Source: a virus. Taken from it: a DNA stretch of 64,000 nt. The position numbers were made by a program, and so were the translations under genes. Under the pieces are notes generated by a model. The model was not told where the DNA came from. It was given only the letters and a program-made list of their open reading frames with translations, and did not search any database. The stretch is taken from positions 64,412 through 128,411 of the IMG/VR virus record IMGVR_UViG_3300008266_000033. One strand, written 5' to 3'. Position 1 is the stretch's first letter, and each line of letters starts with the position of its first letter. Below are positions 11,737 to 35,581 of this stretch, in pieces.

Positions 11737-13953
11737 TTAGGGAGTATCTCCCAATATATCATTTATTATTTGTTGTTGATTTTGAGGAGGAGCACTATTA
11801 TCTGGAGGATCAGGAACAGTACCTGGGTCTGGAGGGAGCCCTCCTCCATTATTTTGATTGTTTAAATCAAGAGTTGGGATATCATCGCCTTGTTCGACAT
11901 TAACAGTTATATTAAATGTTTTATTTTGATCAATATATTGTTCATATAAATTATATTCATTTTTATCTTCTATATTATCAAGATTATAATCAGTATTTAA
12001 ATCATCCTCTAAAATATTATTAACTTTAATAGATTGTAATTTTGGCACAAAATTATGAATAGGAATAAAATTAAACCCAGATACTTTAATCATATGAGGT
12101 AATTCATATTCGGTATCCCAAGTTGCATTAGAATCATTCATTTCATAACTAAATCCTGTTATAATACCTAGTTGTTGAATAAAATAACCTCCTATACTTA
12201 ACACAACAAAATTTCCTCTCATATATCCTGTTTCACTATAATTTGGGGCGCATGCTGAGGCTAAATAGTTTAATTTATTATATAATGATTTTAATTCAAT
12301 TTGTGATTGTGCATATACTGTCCAAGATAATGAGACTTTTCTATCAAAACCAGTGTAATTATAAAATTTTTCACCTCTTCCTAAATATCTATAATCTTGC
12401 CATTCTGTACTATAAGTATCAGAAATTTGATCTAGATATGCTCTAAATTGGATATAATTTATAGCCACATTATTTAATGAAACATCTTCTGAACCAAGAG
12501 AAAAAACATCTGTTAATAATTGATAATCTATTATACCTATTCTAAAAGGTATTAAATCAGGAAGAGTTGAAGTATTATTACTGATAGATATACCAGGATT
12601 TGTTTTATATATAGGATAAAGATTTAATTTATCATAAGAATTTATACCTGCAGTATTTCCTAAATTATTACCAACAAAAGTCCCATAAACCTTCTTATCT
12701 AAAGGATTTCCAGGATCTCCTAAAAGATATCTTGATTCTATAGTAGATTTAAGTTGTGAATTATATGGGTTATATTCTCCATCTTGAATAACAGACTCAT
12801 TATTATTTAAAGGTTTTATTATTTCATTTATCTTTTGTCTAAAATCACGTTGTCTAAGATTAGGAATATAACCTTTATATGATCTTTCATTAAAGTAATT
12901 ATCATTACCCCTAACAGTAACAATATTACTATCTGTTGATCCAGCTTCCATTAATTGATTATATCCTAAAGTATAATAATTTATTTCAGGATTTGTAATA
13001 TCGTTAACTAAATTAGTTTTTACAGAAGGATTATCTAAACGAATTCTAGTTCTTCCTATTCCTAAAATAGAATTAGGTCCTCCAGGATAATTAAACAAAA
13101 TATCAGGATCAGTGCCTATATAATCCAATGATATATTACTTGGATTATCATTTAGAAATTTTTTACCATATAGTCTAATTAAACGATTATCTGTTTGAAT
13201 TTCTGTATTTTTTACTACATCAGAATATTTTCTTAAATCTCCAGGACCACCACCAATTAATCCTTGTTTATTAAGATGTAAACCTAAAGGACCTCCTATA
13301 ACTTGAGCTAATGTATTTATTGGATTATAAATACCTTCATTATAAATAAGAGGATTTAAATTAGCAGGATTTAAGAATCCACCTATTACAGTGTTTGATG
13401 AAATTGTTCTAGTTGATTGAGAAGGAAGAGCAGATTTAGAAAGTATATTTTGTTTTAAAATAAAAAGATTTCCTTCAGTAGATTTAAAAAATTTAGTTAT
13501 TCTTTCAAAATCATTTGTTACAGCTTTTGGTAATAAACCTCCTCCTCTAATAAGCCAATCAGGTCCTCCTGTTCCAGCAGCAGCTGGTTTTAAAGAAACA
13601 CTAGTTCCAGAAAAATCAAATAAACTTTTATTTAATGTTCCATCTTCTATACCTCCAACAATAATTCTTGCTGTATTTAATATACCAGAATATAATAAAA
13701 TTGGTCCAACAATTGGTGCAAGACCATCAGCAATTGCACCAATTGCCGAGAGACCTGCTTTACCTAAAACTTCAAAATTTGATGGATCAGGATTGTATGA
13801 AATATTAAAATTAAGATCATTTGTAGTATTTAACTGTTCATTAGTTGCAGGGATAGCTGTTTGAATATAAGGTTGATCAGAAGATCCACCCCCTGACTCA
13901 TCATGTCCAAATTTTAAAGATTTAAGATTGGTTGTAAGATTTATTAAAGCCAT
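11737..13953 (-). CDS. baseplate/tail tube initiator-like protein
   Basis: C-terminal FRAYLDQISD...W..YLGRGEKFYNY.GF.R..S.SW region; lies between tape measure and LysM genes. Confidence 0.6.
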   Translation of the reverse strand: MALINLTTNLKSLKFGHDESGGGSSDQPYIQTAIPATNEQLNTTNDLNFNISYNPDPSNFEVLGKAGLSAIGAIADGLAPIVGPILLYSGILNTARIIVGGIEDGTLNKSLFDFSGTSVSLKPAAAGTGGPDWLIRGGGLLPKAVTNDFERITKFFKSTEGNLFILKQNILSKSALPSQSTRTISSNTVIGGFLNPANLNPLIYNEGIYNPINTLAQVIGGPLGLHLNKQGLIGGGPGDLRKYSDVVKNTEIQTDNRLIRLYGKKFLNDNPSNISLDYIGTDPDILFNYPGGPNSILGIGRTRIRLDNPSVKTNLVNDITNPEINYYTLGYNQLMEAGSTDSNIVTVRGNDNYFNERSYKGYIPNLRQRDFRQKINEIIKPLNNNESVIQDGEYNPYNSQLKSTIESRYLLGDPGNPLDKKVYGTFVGNNLGNTAGINSYDKLNLYPIYKTNPGISISNNTSTLPDLIPFRIGIIDYQLLTDVFSLGSEDVSLNNVAINYIQFRAYLDQISDTYSTEWQDYRYLGRGEKFYNYTGFDRKVSLSWTVYAQSQIELKSLYNKLNYLASACAPNYSETGYMRGNFVVLSIGGYFIQQLGIITGFSYEMNDSNATWDTEYELPHMIKVSGFNFIPIHNFVPKLQSIKVNNILEDDLNTDYNLDNIEDKNEYNLYEQYIDQNKTFNITVNVEQGDDIPTLDLNNQNNGGGLPPDPGTVPDPPDNSAPPQNQQQIINDILGDTP

Positions 13954-31498: not shown

Positions 31499-32185
31499 TT
31501 AGTCTCTATATTCCATATAGACTTTTAAAATTTCTTCTACTATTTCATGGCGATGATTAGTTTTAAGAGTCATTACTTTAACTCCTTTAACCCGCTCTTC
31601 TAATCGTAAAAAGAAATCAATACCTGAATCTTTTCTAACTTTTAAGTCAATTTGGGCTATATCTCCACAGAATACCATTTTACCACCTCTACCTAAACGA
31701 CCTAACATCATTTCAGTTTGCTGGTGAGTAATATTTTGACATTCATCTACAATTACAAATGAATTAGGAAATGTTCTACCTCTCATAAATGCAAAAGGTA
31801 CTATCTCAATTTCACCTTCAGCTACCATTTTATCTATTCTATCTTTATCATAAAGTAAATAAAGATTAGCATAAATAGGAGCTAACCAAGGATCCATTTT
31901 TTCCTTTAAATCACCTGGTAAAAAACCAATTTCTTCTTTTGCTACTGTAGGACGAGTAATAATAATTTTCTCTATATCCTTTTTAAAAAACATATCTAGT
32001 GCAGATTGACAGGCAACTAATGTTTTACCTGAACCTGCCATACCTTTTAATAAAACTATCGGGTTTGAATATATTAACTGTTTGGCTTCTTTTTGTTCAT
32101 CGTTTAAAGTAAGCTTAAACTTAATTTCACCTTTAGGTTTTCTTTTTTCTTTGAAGATCTCGTCTTCATGGTGATTACTAGCCAT
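31499..32185 (-). CDS. phoH: PhoH-like ATPase
   Basis: GMAGSGKT, IGFLPG, FMRGRTF, DECQN, RLG, GD..QIDL, RH.IV. Confidence 0.95.
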   Translation of the reverse strand: MASNHHEDEIFKEKRKPKGEIKFKLTLNDEQKEAKQLIYSNPIVLLKGMAGSGKTLVACQSALDMFFKKDIEKIIITRPTVAKEEIGFLPGDLKEKMDPWLAPIYANLYLLYDKDRIDKMVAEGEIEIVPFAFMRGRTFPNSFVIVDECQNITHQQTEMMLGRLGRGGKMVFCGDIAQIDLKVRKDSGIDFFLRLEERVKGVKVMTLKTNHRHEIVEEILKVYMEYRD

Positions 32186-32203: not shown

Positions 32204-32929
32204 TTAATCTCTTGTTGAAATTTTTACCAATTTATCAATTCCTGCTTCAACATGCATATGTTCAGGTAAACATAATTCAAAATCAAAACGTGAATCTAAA
32301 GGCAATACTAAATCTGTTTGAGAACCCCATCTGATAAGAGAAAATCTACTATTTTGAGTAAATAATTCATTTTGATCTGTAGTAAAAGGAACTATAACAT
32401 CTACATCCTCGTCTGCAATTTGTATCATATAATAAGAATAATCTAAAGATGGAGAATATACTTTATTCCACATTCTTTCATTATTTTTTACATAAGGAAT
32501 AACATGCTTTGGATTTATAACTCCATTTAATAGATTTTTTTCAACAGCCAACATAGGTTTATTACTTGATTCAATTGAATCTAATTGTTTATATTGTAAT
32601 ACACCTGTATATGGGATTCTATTAATATGAACATCATAAAATGACATGAATATACCAATTACAAGAGATGGTTTATTATAACTTTTATCACCCATTAATT
32701 CTTGTAATGAATAGTTCATACCCTTTACCTCAACCATAGCTTTTGAAGGATCCTCTACTATTTTTTGATATAAAACCACACCATCTGCTGGAGCGTAGAA
32801 ATGTTGATTATCTATATAAGTGGGGCGCATAGGATCCCTAAAGAAAAATGTATTTCCTAATTCTACTAGGGATAATTTTTCTAATTCGGCTACATCAGTA
32901 TCCAACCATTCTTCTATTGTTTTTGCCAT
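32204..32929 (-). CDS. psd: phosphatidylserine decarboxylase-family (pyruvoyl) enzyme lacking a membrane anchor
   Basis: FFRDP.R, APADG, IFMS.YDVH.NR.P, IRWGSQTD (G|S self-cleavage site). Confidence 0.8.
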   Translation of the reverse strand: MAKTIEEWLDTDVAELEKLSLVELGNTFFFRDPMRPTYIDNQHFYAPADGVVLYQKIVEDPSKAMVEVKGMNYSLQELMGDKSYNKPSLVIGIFMSFYDVHINRIPYTGVLQYKQLDSIESSNKPMLAVEKNLLNGVINPKHVIPYVKNNERMWNKVYSPSLDYSYYMIQIADEDVDVIVPFTTDQNELFTQNSRFSLIRWGSQTDLVLPLDSRFDFELCLPEHMHVEAGIDKLVKISTRD

Positions 32930-32930
32930 C

Positions 32931-33845
32931 TTATACTAACTGTTTGTAATAATCAACATAATTTAAATGCATAACCATACAGCTCAATAAAGCTCCTGAT
33001 TTCATATATTCTGATAGGTTAAAGAATACTGGTTCCATTCCTTCTTTAGCACATATTGCTTCTAATGAATTAATCTTATGTTTTTCATAAGCATAATCCT
33101 CATGAGTTTTACTTAATTCAGAAATATTAGAAGCACATAAAATTAAATTACCAAAACGAACTGAATTAGTAATACCACCCAAGGCATCATCTTCATCTAT
33201 GTCTATAACTTGAGTATATTTTTCTATATCGCGGATCTCTTCAGGATCAAACATCGACGTGCAAATCATAGTTTTTTCTTTACTGAGTGGAAAAATTGAA
33301 CAGTCCAAATGATATAAATAATCATCAACCATTTCAACATCAATAATATTCATACCAAATTGTTCCCGCATCCACTCATATGTTTTATGATCGGTACGGA
33401 TACCTGAACCACCAATATAATTATTACCTCCAATAAATTTAAGATCAGCCTCTCCTTCCCATTTATAAGGACATAAATGAGTATCATAATTCATTAATTT
33501 GAAAAATGCCTCTCCAATTTTTTCTTCTCCTATTCTAGGTTCTGAGGTGTAATTAGATAAAACTATATTATTTGAATCTTTAATATGAGGTAAATAAATA
33601 CCTAAATTAGCCACATATACTTGATCTTGAAAATCACCAAGAGATGGAAGTAAATATACTAACCCATCTCCTGATAGGAAATTATAAAGATCCATAAATT
33701 GTTTATAAGCTTTTTTTCTATTTACTTGTAGATCATCTGGTGATAATTCTTTCATCCAAATGTTATTAGGATTCTTAGTATCCAAAGTAAATGGGAAATT
33801 CATTACATAACTTGGGATGTTTAATTGTGATGGGGTTTCTTTCAT
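32931..33845 (-). CDS. amidinotransferase superfamily enzyme (arginine dihydrolase/citrullinase/DDAH-like)
   Basis: DQVYVAN, EGEAD, YHLDC, SEYMKSGALLSC. Probable start at ATG 33845 (MKETPSQ), because the ORF-track extension overlaps the promoter. Confidence 0.85.
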   Translation of the reverse strand: MKETPSQLNIPSYVMNFPFTLDTKNPNNIWMKELSPDDLQVNRKKAYKQFMDLYNFLSGDGLVYLLPSLGDFQDQVYVANLGIYLPHIKDSNNIVLSNYTSEPRIGEEKIGEAFFKLMNYDTHLCPYKWEGEADLKFIGGNNYIGGSGIRTDHKTYEWMREQFGMNIIDVEMVDDYLYHLDCSIFPLSKEKTMICTSMFDPEEIRDIEKYTQVIDIDEDDALGGITNSVRFGNLILCASNISELSKTHEDYAYEKHKINSLEAICAKEGMEPVFFNLSEYMKSGALLSCMVMHLNYVDYYKQLV

Positions 33846-33867
33846 ATTTGTTAACATTGATTTAACA

Positions 33868-33899
33868 TAAATATAATAAAACCTACTAAAAACCACAAG
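33868..33899 (-). promoter_or_regulatory. Bacteroidota-type -33/-7 promoter for the amidinotransferase-PSD cassette
   Basis: Sense CTTG-N20-TATATTTA. Confidence 0.65.
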
Positions 33900-33964: not shown

Positions 33965-35581
33965 TTAAAGAGTATTTAATCCAGATACATAAATTTTCCC
34001 ATAAAACTCGGGACGTAACATCTTCTTAGCGTAACGAGTCAAGAGACCTTTTCTTGGTGTAAAGGTATCAGGATCGTACACTAATGGAGTCATTACGAGT
34101 GGTACATAAGGAGCAAATACAGCACCTGCTTCTAAGAACTGGCTACCTCTGAAACCTAATAAAATAGTGTTTTCAGTCATGTATGGGTTCTTGTAAACAT
34201 TGTATCTACCATTCAATGAACCAGCTTTCTGAACACCAAACGCATATTGCATTTGAGCAGCATCACCATTGTTATTAGCAGCGAATCCTGGAATTGATTC
34301 AAGGATAGTTGCTACTGTAGGAGAGCATACTAAGAAGTTTGCACCACCACGAAGTGTTAATTGGTGAATTTTGTTGCTAAGTTTCTGAATCTTAGTACCA
34401 AGAGTTTGGAACCAACCACCTTGAGTATTATAGAATCCTAAAGTAGCTGCAGGAGTTGCTGATGCACCAGTAATAACAGTGTTATTAATTGCTGACCAAT
34501 ATTCAGTACCAGCTGCTGCATCTTGAATCAACATATCAAGAATTTCGAGGTCAATTTCCATAGAAATATACTCGCTCATGATGTTAGTTAATTCAGCTTC
34601 AGCATCGATATTTTGGTAAGCACTTAAATCTTGTGCATATTCAGGTGTCCAAACTGCCTTTAATTTACGTGTTTTAGCCACAATTGCTTGTGATTGCATT
34701 TTTACGTTAATTTCTGGGATTGCAATTGGGTTATTTTGACCATTCAACTGAGTGTTACCATCTTCAAAGTCGCCTCTCTTATTATCGGCTGTGGCTAATG
34801 AATGAGAAACAACAAATGTTAATGTTCCACCACCTACTTGTGAACCAGTTACTACAAATGTTACTGAAGTTCCGCTTGTAGTTGTGAAAGCTGGTAAATA
34901 AGTTAAAGCAACACTTGATGAATATGGAACAAAACTTCTAGCTGCTTCAAAATCTGTAGTAGTTGGTAAAGAAACTGTAATAGTTTTCCATTGACCTGCT
35001 ACAGCTGAAGCTGAGTAATCAGAATCAAAATTAAAAGTTGTACCCCAGTTAGCTGAACTAGTAGTTGAAGTAGCTGTAGATGCTGTGTTATTTACTGAGT
35101 AACCAAATCTACCAGCACCATAAAGACCACCATCAGTAGTGTTAGTAGCGAATGGATAGGTAGAGTTAACTGTTGAAGTACCACCGTACATTGAACCATT
35201 TTGAGTAAATGGAGCTTTGTTAGTACCGTATTGAAAATCTAGGAAGAATACTAGTCCAGAAGGTAAGTTCATTGGTTGAACTGAAACGAATTCTTTCGCT
35301 ACAATTTGACCAAATACCTTACGTACTAATGGAAGAGCAATACCAGCCCAGTTCTCACCTTGTCCTACTGTAAAAGTGTTATTTGTAGTAGAAGTAGTTG
35401 AGTTTTCAGTTACTAATTGTTTTGCTTGATTTTCAAGCAACATTGCCATGTTGTTTCTGTCGGCTTCTGTTAAACCTTCCAATAAACCGGTTTTAGACCA
35501 TTTAGAGGCCAATCTACCGGCATCACTTTGAAGTGATTTCCAAGGGTTAGCAGATTCCAATAATGATTGAATTGAGTTCAT
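33965..35581 (-). CDS. major capsid protein (gp23-like)
   Basis: LPLVRKVF, VSVQPMNLPSGLVFFLD, AKTRKLKA.WT.E.AQDL, EIDLEIL, RGGANF, APYVPL, FTPRKG..TRYA. Confidence 0.96.
   Translation of the reverse strand: MNSIQSLLESANPWKSLQSDAGRLASKWSKTGLLEGLTEADRNNMAMLLENQAKQLVTENSTTSTTNNTFTVGQGENWAGIALPLVRKVFGQIVAKEFVSVQPMNLPSGLVFFLDFQYGTNKAPFTQNGSMYGGTSTVNSTYPFATNTTDGGLYGAGRFGYSVNNTASTATSTTSSANWGTTFNFDSDYSASAVAGQWKTITVSLPTTTDFEAARSFVPYSSSVALTYLPAFTTTSGTSVTFVVTGSQVGGGTLTFVVSHSLATADNKRGDFEDGNTQLNGQNNPIAIPEINVKMQSQAIVAKTRKLKAVWTPEYAQDLSAYQNIDAEAELTNIMSEYISMEIDLEILDMLIQDAAAGTEYWSAINNTVITGASATPAATLGFYNTQGGWFQTLGTKIQKLSNKIHQLTLRGGANFLVCSPTVATILESIPGFAANNNGDAAQMQYAFGVQKAGSLNGRYNVYKNPYMTENTILLGFRGSQFLEAGAVFAPYVPLVMTPLVYDPDTFTPRKGLLTRYAKKMLRPEFYGKIYVSGLNTL

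Follow-up and report, generated by a model that had tools for sequence, protein, structure and literature searches.

What would a T4-like phage make with two adjacent enzyme genes placed behind its major capsid protein gene? The genes in question lie on the minus strand of a 64,000-nt stretch of DNA (the window), which makes up the right half of an IMG/VR virus record of 128,411 bp (IMGVR_UViG_3300008266_000033), itself estimated to be 79% complete. Gene 1 (positions 32931..33845 of the window) encodes a pentein-fold (guanidino-group-modifying) enzyme of 304 amino acids that resembles ArgZ/AgrE, and gene 2 (32204..32929) encodes a proenzyme of 241 amino acids with the fold of the pyruvoyl-dependent phosphatidylserine decarboxylases (PSDs) that lacks their membrane anchor. 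It is almost certain that the two products serve a single pathway, one that acts on a basic or guanidino amino acid. Judging from the sequences, the pair may convert arginine to ornithine (gene 1) and ornithine to putrescine (gene 2) in the infected cell, a reading to which we give a probability of roughly 45%.

The pair is linked in phages and bacteria

The stop codon of gene 1 (32931-32933) and the ATG of gene 2 (32927-32929) are separated by exactly 1 nt, the gap that a first-pass annotation of this DNA had reported. Searches of IMG/VR with either gene recovered the other. When the best 80 of 190 relatives of gene 2 were examined, gene 1 was found directly upstream in 78 loci, which is every locus that could be tested (78/78), the two misses being contig ends with 60 and 8 nt of upstream DNA; the gap was no larger than 12 nt in 77 of the loci. 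Likewise, gene 2 followed gene 1 in 79 of the 80 best loci from 223 relatives of gene 1 (79/79 testable), with the single miss at a contig end that has 85 nt left. Insertions of 758 nt (locus L007) and 1051 nt (one locus of the gene 1 search) separate the genes in two cases, and the others do not exceed 21 nt. The IMG/VR relatives preserve the arrangement capsid gene, gene 1, gene 2, PhoH, and since these loci belong to one clade (64–87% identity) they count as one lineage.

The pair is also present in more distant phages. In a collection of cultured phages both genes match the same records, 40 and 39 of them from Campylobacter phages and 6 and 6 from Bacteroides phages, and the Campylobacter matches listed are all of the Fletchervirus type. 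The two genes are adjacent, 15 nt apart, in Bacteroides phage DAC19 and are separated by ~42 kb in Campylobacter phage NCTC12673 (Fletchervirus).

A profile search of bacterial genome contigs with a 16-sequence alignment revealed gene 2 homologues, 40–54% identical, in 26 loci of the Pseudomonadota, Actinomycetota, Verrucomicrobiota, Desulfobacterota and Latescibacterota. A gene 1 homologue was found within 2 kb in 25 of them and is lacking only at the Latescibacterota locus, so that the pair occurs in at least four bacterial phyla. By contrast, none of 54 loci with ordinary PSDs (26–33% identity) has a gene 1 homologue. There were no capsid or PhoH matches in the bacterial pair loci. The first-pass annotation had named rare adjacency in relatives as a finding that would count against its reading; the two genes are clearly linked in every testable IMG/VR relative and in bacteria.

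Gene 1 and the cyanobacterial enzymes ArgZ and AgrE

The open reading frame (ORF) of gene 1 extends to a GTG at 33896 (32931-33896, 321 amino acids), and the start is probably the ATG at 33845 (304 amino acids), because the relatives are mostly 303–305 amino acids long. In Pfam, gene 1 matches only DDAH_eukar, a model of the dimethylarginine dimethylaminohydrolases (DDAH), whose cut-off of 23 is narrowly exceeded (26.4 bits); the NCBIfam model DdahMtb reaches 82.2 bits, far from its cut-off of 300. The protein belongs to PHROG phrog_12759 (E 1.1e-59), which is listed as of unknown function, and does not match the agmatine deiminase family PF04371 at E ≤ 0.1. Searches of the PDB sequences matched solely ArgZ (Synechocystis Sll1336) and AgrE (Anabaena Alr4995) (PDB 6juy-6jv1 and 6lrf-6lrh), with E-values of 7.8e-12 for the single protein and 6.5e-18 for a 30-sequence family profile; no DDAH chain in the PDB was found with the profile at E ≤ 0.01.

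The predicted structure is consistent with this assignment. In a Foldseek comparison the AlphaFold model of gene 1 (pLDDT 80.2) had as its best match the N-terminal domain of ArgZ (6jv0; E 2.5e-17, TM-score 0.73/0.80). The runners-up, DDAH as the next family (4.6e-10), amidinotransferases and agmatine deiminase, lie between 1e-10 and 1e-8 and are 7–8 orders of magnitude weaker; the match to the agmatine deiminase of C. jejuni is weak (E 6e-9). The first-pass annotation had placed gene 1 nearest to ArgZ/AgrE by eye, and sequence search and fold comparison both bear this out. The motifs DQVYVAN, WEGEAD, YHLDC and SEYMKSGALLSC are present in the translation of gene 1, and all of the motifs that had been quoted for the two genes were found in their translations.

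Gene 1 residues D74, N80, R104, E130, D134, R150, H179 and D181 align with AgrE D65, N71, R90, E118, D122, R139, H168 and D170, respectively. Conservation was assessed in 56 members, namely 30 sequences of this clade, 24 bacterial sequences, DAC19 and NCTC12673. The aligned residues are kept in 53–56 of the 56, with the exception of D134, which is Asp in 37 and Glu in 19; H179, E130, D181, D74 and N80 are kept in 54–56, and R104, R150 and D181 in 56, 53 and 56, respectively. C289, which lies in a G-A-x-L-S-C motif, is kept in 53 members and is located beyond the point where the printed ArgZ/AgrE alignments stop. ArgZ and AgrE differ from gene 1 in several respects. They show EGAGD and HLDT, where the gene 1 family has the family-specific residues E132 and C182, and they possess an ornithine cyclodeaminase-like C-terminal domain, which the stand-alone gene 1 protein of 304 amino acids does not. 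The partner of gene 1 is a decarboxylase and that of ArgZ/AgrE a cyclodeaminase.

In arginine deiminase (ADI) and DDAH, as described in a passage of PMC11659421, two Arg residues grip the carboxylate of the substrate, and the guanidino group is bound by a second Asp, whose position the passage does not state. The residue two positions after the catalytic His is, in the same account, Asp in ADI and Lys in DDAH, where the Lys gives room for the dimethylamino group (PMC11659421). D181 of gene 1 is found two residues after H179, and the gene 1 family therefore fails the DDAH Lys feature. R104 and R150 would represent the carboxylate-holding pair of ADI and DDAH and, read in this way, favour an amino acid substrate over agmatine. 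The position of Asn80 is taken by us, on the basis of the DxxFxxD motif, to be that of the second guanidino-binding Asp of ADI and DDAH. Taken together, the residues of gene 1 would suggest ArgZ-like chemistry on a free guanidino amino acid, of which arginine is the simplest candidate.

Gene 2 is a PSD-fold protein without a membrane anchor

Gene 2 is a member of the Pfam family PS_Dcarbxylase (PF02666; E 3.7e-24, 85.9 bits against a gathering score of 22) and of PHROG phrog_12670. The 15 equivalog models for PSD and archaetidylserine decarboxylase listed for it all score under their cut-offs, the best with 68.5 bits against 225. The protein contains the motifs FFFRDPMRP, PADG, DVH and WGSQ, and the family keeps FFRDPxR, PADG and DVH. 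The Asp-His-Ser self-cleavage set is conserved (D49, H101 and S203, together with G202), and cleavage of the proenzyme is predicted to occur between G202 and S203. In these motifs, in the Gly-Ser site and in the fold (Z ~11), gene 2 is like the short-type bacterial and archaeal PSDs (E. coli PSD, PDB 6l06 and 7cnw). A structural model built on 72 diverse relatives (pLDDT 88.7) gave fold Z-scores (VIA) of 11.3 with E. coli PSD, 10.1 with PsiD and 9.3–9.6 with Ao-ADC1.

The differences from the canonical enzymes concern the N-terminus and the surroundings of the active site. For comparison, 52 canonical short PSDs, mostly from the Sphingomonadales, were taken from the same scan. Gene 2 has 28 hydrophilic residues before FFRDP, as opposed to ~60 residues in the canonical short PSDs. 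A transmembrane-like segment, defined as any 19-residue window with a mean hydropathy above 1.6, is present in 96% of the 52 canonical PSDs, in 12% of the 72-sequence set A2 and in none of the 26 bacterial members. The net charge of the gene 2 family is about −6 to −8, compared with +2.4 for the canonical PSDs. At the positions of canonical G173, R177, R178, R204 and T232 the gene 2 family carries D, D, V/S, Q and D, respectively, and an insert of 16 residues, which is a gap in the canonical PSDs, bears an invariant Glu (E130). The claims of the first pass that gene 2 is an anchor-less pyruvoyl proenzyme of the PSD fold and that its N-terminus is acidic are both confirmed, by the Pfam match, the fold and hydropathy in the one case and by the 28 hydrophilic residues in the other.

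The loss of the anchor and the reversal of charge near the predicted active site would be expected if a cationic amino acid had taken the place of an anionic phospholipid head group as the substrate. The replacement of three canonical Arg residues and the gain of three acidic ones would argue against phosphatidylserine as the substrate of gene 2. The database labels taken literally, with gene 2 a true PSD that raises phosphatidylethanolamine and gene 1 an unrelated DDAH or amidinotransferase, agree with the source names, with PF02666 for gene 2 and with the narrow DDAH_eukar score of gene 1, and an ocean phage survey takes viral psd as a gene of the phosphatidylethanolamine pathway (PMC11360552). 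We consider this highly improbable. Gene 2 is anchor-less, has acidic residues where PSDs have basic ones and scores far below the cut-off of every PSD equivalog model; gene 1 has Asp rather than the DDAH Lys after the His and retrieved no DDAH in the PDB profile search; and unrelated functions do not explain a linkage that is strict for the pair and absent from all 54 loci with real PSDs.

There are solved precedents for the view, held in the first-pass annotation, that PSD-fold enzymes can act on free amino acids. Ao-ADC1 from Aspergillus oryzae (PDB 9jer and 9jf5) and PsiD, a fungal enzyme of psilocybin synthesis (PDB 8x4q and 8zia), are, like gene 2, soluble PSD-fold pyruvoyl enzymes, and act on the free amino acids arginine and tryptophan, respectively; Ao-ADC1 is described as a PSD-family pyruvoyl arginine decarboxylase with no PSD activity (PMC12904898). 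They share 13–15% identity with gene 2 and differ from it in being 100–140 residues longer, in having an N-terminal helical region and in lacking a pentein partner. The canonical PSDs, for their part, differ from gene 2 in the transmembrane N-terminus, in charge, in the absence of the Glu-bearing insert and in having no pentein-gene partner (0/54).

The residues of the two proteins also bear on a route through citrulline, in which gene 1 would be an arginine deiminase, gene 2 would decarboxylate citrulline to N-carbamoylputrescine and an amidohydrolase of the host would complete putrescine. In having Asp two residues beyond the His (D181), gene 1 resembles ADI, and by simple chemistry N-carbamoylputrescine is decarboxylated citrulline. 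A CN-hydrolase is missing from the five phage genomes with the pair that were searched (the source phage, G000, at 79% completeness, its complete IMG/VR relatives G001 and G002, DAC19 and NCTC12673), hence the host step would be required. This route appears very unlikely, since Asn80 agrees with the dihydrolases where ADI has Asp, the additional helical domain of the ADIs, which exceed the 304 amino acids of gene 1 in length, is missing, and the acidic residues gained by gene 2 would accommodate a cationic side chain more readily than a ureido group, which is neutral.

The PSD-like gene seems to be a target of selfish elements. Two metagenome relatives of gene 2 (P0245 and P0374) have an intein with a LAGLIDADG homing endonuclease within the PSD-like coding sequence, and in Fletchervirus phages a gene for a Hef-type homing endonuclease overlaps the 3′ end of the PSD-like gene. 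Other relatives were called as fusions, P0247 with 1114 and P0253 with 390 amino acids, which may be gene-calling run-throughs; among the called fusions, a VapB-like region is found in one, together with an ADP-ribosyltransferase exoenzyme domain at the C-terminus, and an Acb1 anti-CBASS domain in another.

Neighbours and gene order of the pair in bacteria

Of the 26 bacterial loci, 20 have an exporter gene next to the pair (ABC in 10 and MATE in 10); of the 54 control loci with ordinary PSDs, 1 has an exporter neighbour. Typing with NCBIfam gave generic ABC and MATE exporters, all under the equivalog cut-offs. Genes of polyamine metabolism are found at some loci: in Hyphomicrobium (L100) a SpeE-like aminopropyltransferase gene follows the pair directly and an agmatine-deiminase-like gene is present, in Nocardia (L099) two agmatine-deiminase-like genes are near the pair, and in L107 and L108 there is a LysA-like decarboxylase dependent on pyridoxal phosphate (PLP). 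At all four loci these neighbours score under the equivalog cut-offs. A riboswitch search of nine bacterial loci found none, and returned only a tRNA and a signal recognition particle RNA.

The order of the genes differs between bacteria and phages. The decarboxylase gene comes first in 22 of the 26 bacterial loci, the phage order is seen in 2 and opposite strands in 1. The majority order would suit a pathway in which gene 2 decarboxylates arginine to agmatine and gene 1 then converts agmatine to putrescine or N-carbamoylputrescine. Ao-ADC1 offers this scheme its solved PSD-fold arginine decarboxylase without PSD activity, the agmatine-deiminase-like genes of L099 and L100 lie near the pair, and Campylobacter and Bacteroides reportedly make putrescine via agmatine. 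Nevertheless, we regard the reversed order as unlikely. Gene 1 keeps its presumed carboxylate-holding Arg pair (R104 in 56/56 and R150 in 53/56 members), whereas agmatine has no carboxylate; it has no agmatine deiminase match in Pfam, and the fold match of the C. jejuni enzyme (6e-9) is far from that of ArgZ (2.5e-17). Ao-ADC1, moreover, is no nearer to gene 2 than PSD is.

The exporters also fit a different amine, formed from another guanidino or basic amino acid, which bacteria would export as a signal, toxin or building block and which phages would use, for example, in counter-defence or in the modification of DNA or the virion. We hold this to be doubtful. The frequency of exporters beside the pair speaks for it, as do the carriers, which include many actinomycetes and one Xenorhabdus, groups rich in secondary metabolism; so do the members called as fusions with an Acb1 anti-CBASS or ADP-ribosyltransferase domain, and the similarity to an ORF of GenBank AF210249 that is cited in the NCTC12673 record. 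The fusions, however, may be run-throughs of the gene calling, and in Saccharothrix algeriensis more than 200 kb separate the pair from the nearest non-ribosomal peptide synthetase condensation domain among the matches listed. No riboswitch or other metabolite-specific marker was found in the nine loci, and the residues common to gene 1 and ArgZ would point to arginine.

The record just mentioned (NCTC12673; L003, NC_015464.1, gp085) notes that the PSD-like protein is similar to 'AF210249_12' and to Saccharopolyspora erythraea SACE_0607. AF210249 is presumably the bleomycin gene cluster, and bleomycins carry agmatine or polyamine end groups. Streptoalloteichus hindustanus (L094) is another carrier of the pair.

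Proposed pathway

The folds, the conserved residues, the absence of the anchor and the strict linkage of the genes in phages and bacteria are shown by the analysis. What the enzymes act on and make, in which sequence they do so and how the phage profits are inferred, and the proposed scheme is as follows. Gene 1 would work on free L-arginine in the manner of the cyanobacterial ArgZ/AgrE, with Cys289, His179 and Glu130 hydrolysing the guanidino group twice to give ornithine, CO2 and two NH3. Gene 2 would cleave itself between Gly202 and Ser203 to form the pyruvoyl group and would then act as a soluble decarboxylase on ornithine, whose cationic side chain may be gripped by the family-specific acidic residues E130, D173 and D232. 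The product would be putrescine. The first-pass annotation had put forward this route, and the present analysis supports its interpretation in part.

In its widest form, which we hold somewhat more tentatively than the conversion in the infected cell, the proposal is that a stand-alone ArgZ-type dihydrolase and a PSD-fold pyruvoyl ornithine decarboxylase may constitute an undescribed route to putrescine. As a mobile two-gene module it would serve T4-like phages of Bacteroidota and of Campylobacter as well as bacteria from at least four phyla. In the latter, with an ABC or MATE exporter coupled to the pair, the diamine would be destined for secretion.

Several observations weigh against the conversion of arginine to putrescine. 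By score gene 1 is outside the curated ArgZ family, with 66.8 bits against a cut-off of 450 for Arg_dihydro and 62 against 1025 for bifunc_ArgZ (NF052232 and NF052231), and its identity to ArgZ is ~21%. The presumed equivalence of C289 with the catalytic Cys264 of ArgZ lies outside every printed alignment, and the roles of ArgZ Asn71 and of the two Arg residues are in part presumed. The fold of gene 2 does not name its substrate, being at about equal distance from PSD, PsiD and Ao-ADC1 (Z 9.3–11.3), and some of the residues regarded as canonical for PSDs may be lineage-specific, because the comparison set is mostly from the Sphingomonadales. The solved PSD-fold decarboxylase that has a basic substrate takes arginine and not ornithine.

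The genomic surroundings add to these points. None of the five phage genomes has a gene for S-adenosylmethionine decarboxylase (AdoMetDC), spermidine synthase, CN-hydrolase or a PLP-dependent ornithine or arginine decarboxylase, nor was any further recognisable polyamine gene found in them that would use putrescine. In bacteria, genes for polyamine metabolism lie near the pair in 2 of the 26 loci (L099 and L100), or in 4 if L107 and L108 are counted, and the exporters fit a secreted product of other identity as well as they fit putrescine.

The phage locus and its genome

The source is an uncultured T4-like myovirus from freshwater, and freshwater metagenomes are the main source of DNA near-identical to the window. 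All of the genes in the region are encoded on the minus strand. The gp23-type major capsid protein gene (33965..35581; Pfam Gp23, PF07068, E 1.4e-77) precedes the pair, and its product is 57.5% identical to that of Flavobacterium phage immuto, the nearest cultured relative. A PhoH-like ATPase gene (31499..32185; Pfam PhoH, E 1.4e-63) begins 18 nt downstream of gene 2, and a terminator scan identified no terminator-like site between the two.

The terminator that the first-pass annotation had placed after the capsid gene is real: at 33944-33920 on the minus strand there is an intrinsic terminator with an 11-bp stem containing 7 G-C pairs, a 3-nt loop and a T-rich tail (TTGTTTTTCT). The region has three terminator-like sites against 0.9 expected. 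The annotation had also described a −33/−7 promoter for the pair, which was confirmed in part. A recurrent promoter-like box, TATATTTATG (33866..33875, minus strand), is found 30 nt upstream of the ATG at 33845, and may act as a promoter; it includes the 7-mers TATTTAT and ATATTTA, each of which occurs in 16 of the 43 intergenic upstream regions of the source phage, as against 2.1 and 2.6 expected. The Bacteroidetes-type −33/−7 pair itself was not confirmed, and a sigma-70 scan was at chance level (16 sites against 17.8 expected). The cassette therefore sits behind both a terminator and a recurrent promoter-like box and, given the 1-nt spacing of its genes, the two enzymes would probably be made together, late in infection and along with PhoH.

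In one run of a marine metatranscriptome, contigs cover parts of both genes, mostly from relatives less than 95% alike, so that transcription is not demonstrated by them; one 212-nt piece on gene 2 has six differences. A DNA contig in which PhoH was apparently joined to the capsid gene, with 1961 nt left out, was discounted owing to the low stringency of the match and a side of 41 nt.

Phage immuto has no match to gene 1 or gene 2. In this phage (L169, NC_055915.1, 128591-130514) the slot between the capsid gene and PhoH is filled by two unrelated genes of 89 and 546 amino acids. In this group of phages the slot holds variable cargo, and the pair, being absent from immuto where other genes occupy its place, is cargo and not core.

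The first pass had proposed an amine for DNA packaging or modification, and nothing was found in support of this. The source phage has a single gene of the thymidylate synthase family, whose product scores as an ordinary ThyA (313 bits, for a cut-off of 108), and hence nothing points to hydroxymethyl-pyrimidine hypermodification. A pathway that replaces or hypermodifies a DNA base, for example by putting deoxyinosine in place of deoxyguanosine (dG) or by forming putrescinyl-thymine, is hardly credible. Fletchervirus DNA reportedly has deoxyinosine in place of dG, and it is to this type that all of the Campylobacter phage matches listed belong. A pyruvoyl decarboxylase, however, requires an alpha-amino acid, and gene 1 keeps its presumed amino-acid-binding Arg pair. 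The source phage has the ordinary ThyA, DAC19 and NCTC12673 have no gene of the thymidylate synthase family at all, and the bacterial homologues of the pair adjoin exporters rather than DNA enzymes.

The ThyA gene (G000:C1:19810-21012; L166:810-2012, minus strand) encodes 400 amino acids, and its match to the ThyA profile is interrupted by ~90 inserted residues; the ThyA match of the relative G001 is likewise split in two inside one frame of 378 amino acids. Outside the window, at G000:C1:25000-36100 (L166:6000-17100), about a dozen genes encode proteins of 200–360 amino acids. Of the eight that were scanned, four match glycosyltransferase families 2 and 11 or one of two families of methyltransferases, and the other four are without a Pfam match; the region looks like a phage-borne glycan-synthesis island. 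The source phage also encodes tRNA-Leu(TAA) and tRNA-Arg(TCT) (L165), at G000:C1:11724-11809 and 13552-13626.

Implications

Polyamines neutralise packaged DNA and support translation. Phages are known to encode polyamine enzymes, which, in the main text of Li et al. (PNAS 2023, PMC9992855), include AdoMetDC-derived pyruvoyl ornithine and arginine decarboxylases, PLP-dependent ornithine decarboxylase, arginase and others. They are like the proposed route in yielding putrescine-type amines from arginine or ornithine, in part with pyruvoyl enzymes, and differ from it in their folds. The words phosphatidylserine, dihydrolase, amidinotransferase and Campylobacter are absent from that main text. 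Our literature searches found no description of the pair or of a PSD-fold ornithine decarboxylase in phages, and an arginine dihydrolase combined with a re-purposed lipid-enzyme fold is not among the routes described.

If the proposal is true, a common pair that is now labelled 'phosphatidylserine decarboxylase' and 'DDAH/amidinotransferase' is mis-annotated; in word-index protein searches the two families yielded more than 1,100 and more than 2,000 members. Where surveys of phage metabolic genes have assigned viral psd to lipid metabolism, they would then need correction, and the gene 2 family would add a new class to the pyruvoyl amino-acid decarboxylases, one shared by bacteria and phages. 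The link to exporters in bacteria hints at a secreted diamine. In phages, the pair would provide a testable handle on polyamine supply during infection, through the cultured DAC phages of Bacteroides thetaiotaomicron and the Fletchervirus phages of Campylobacter.

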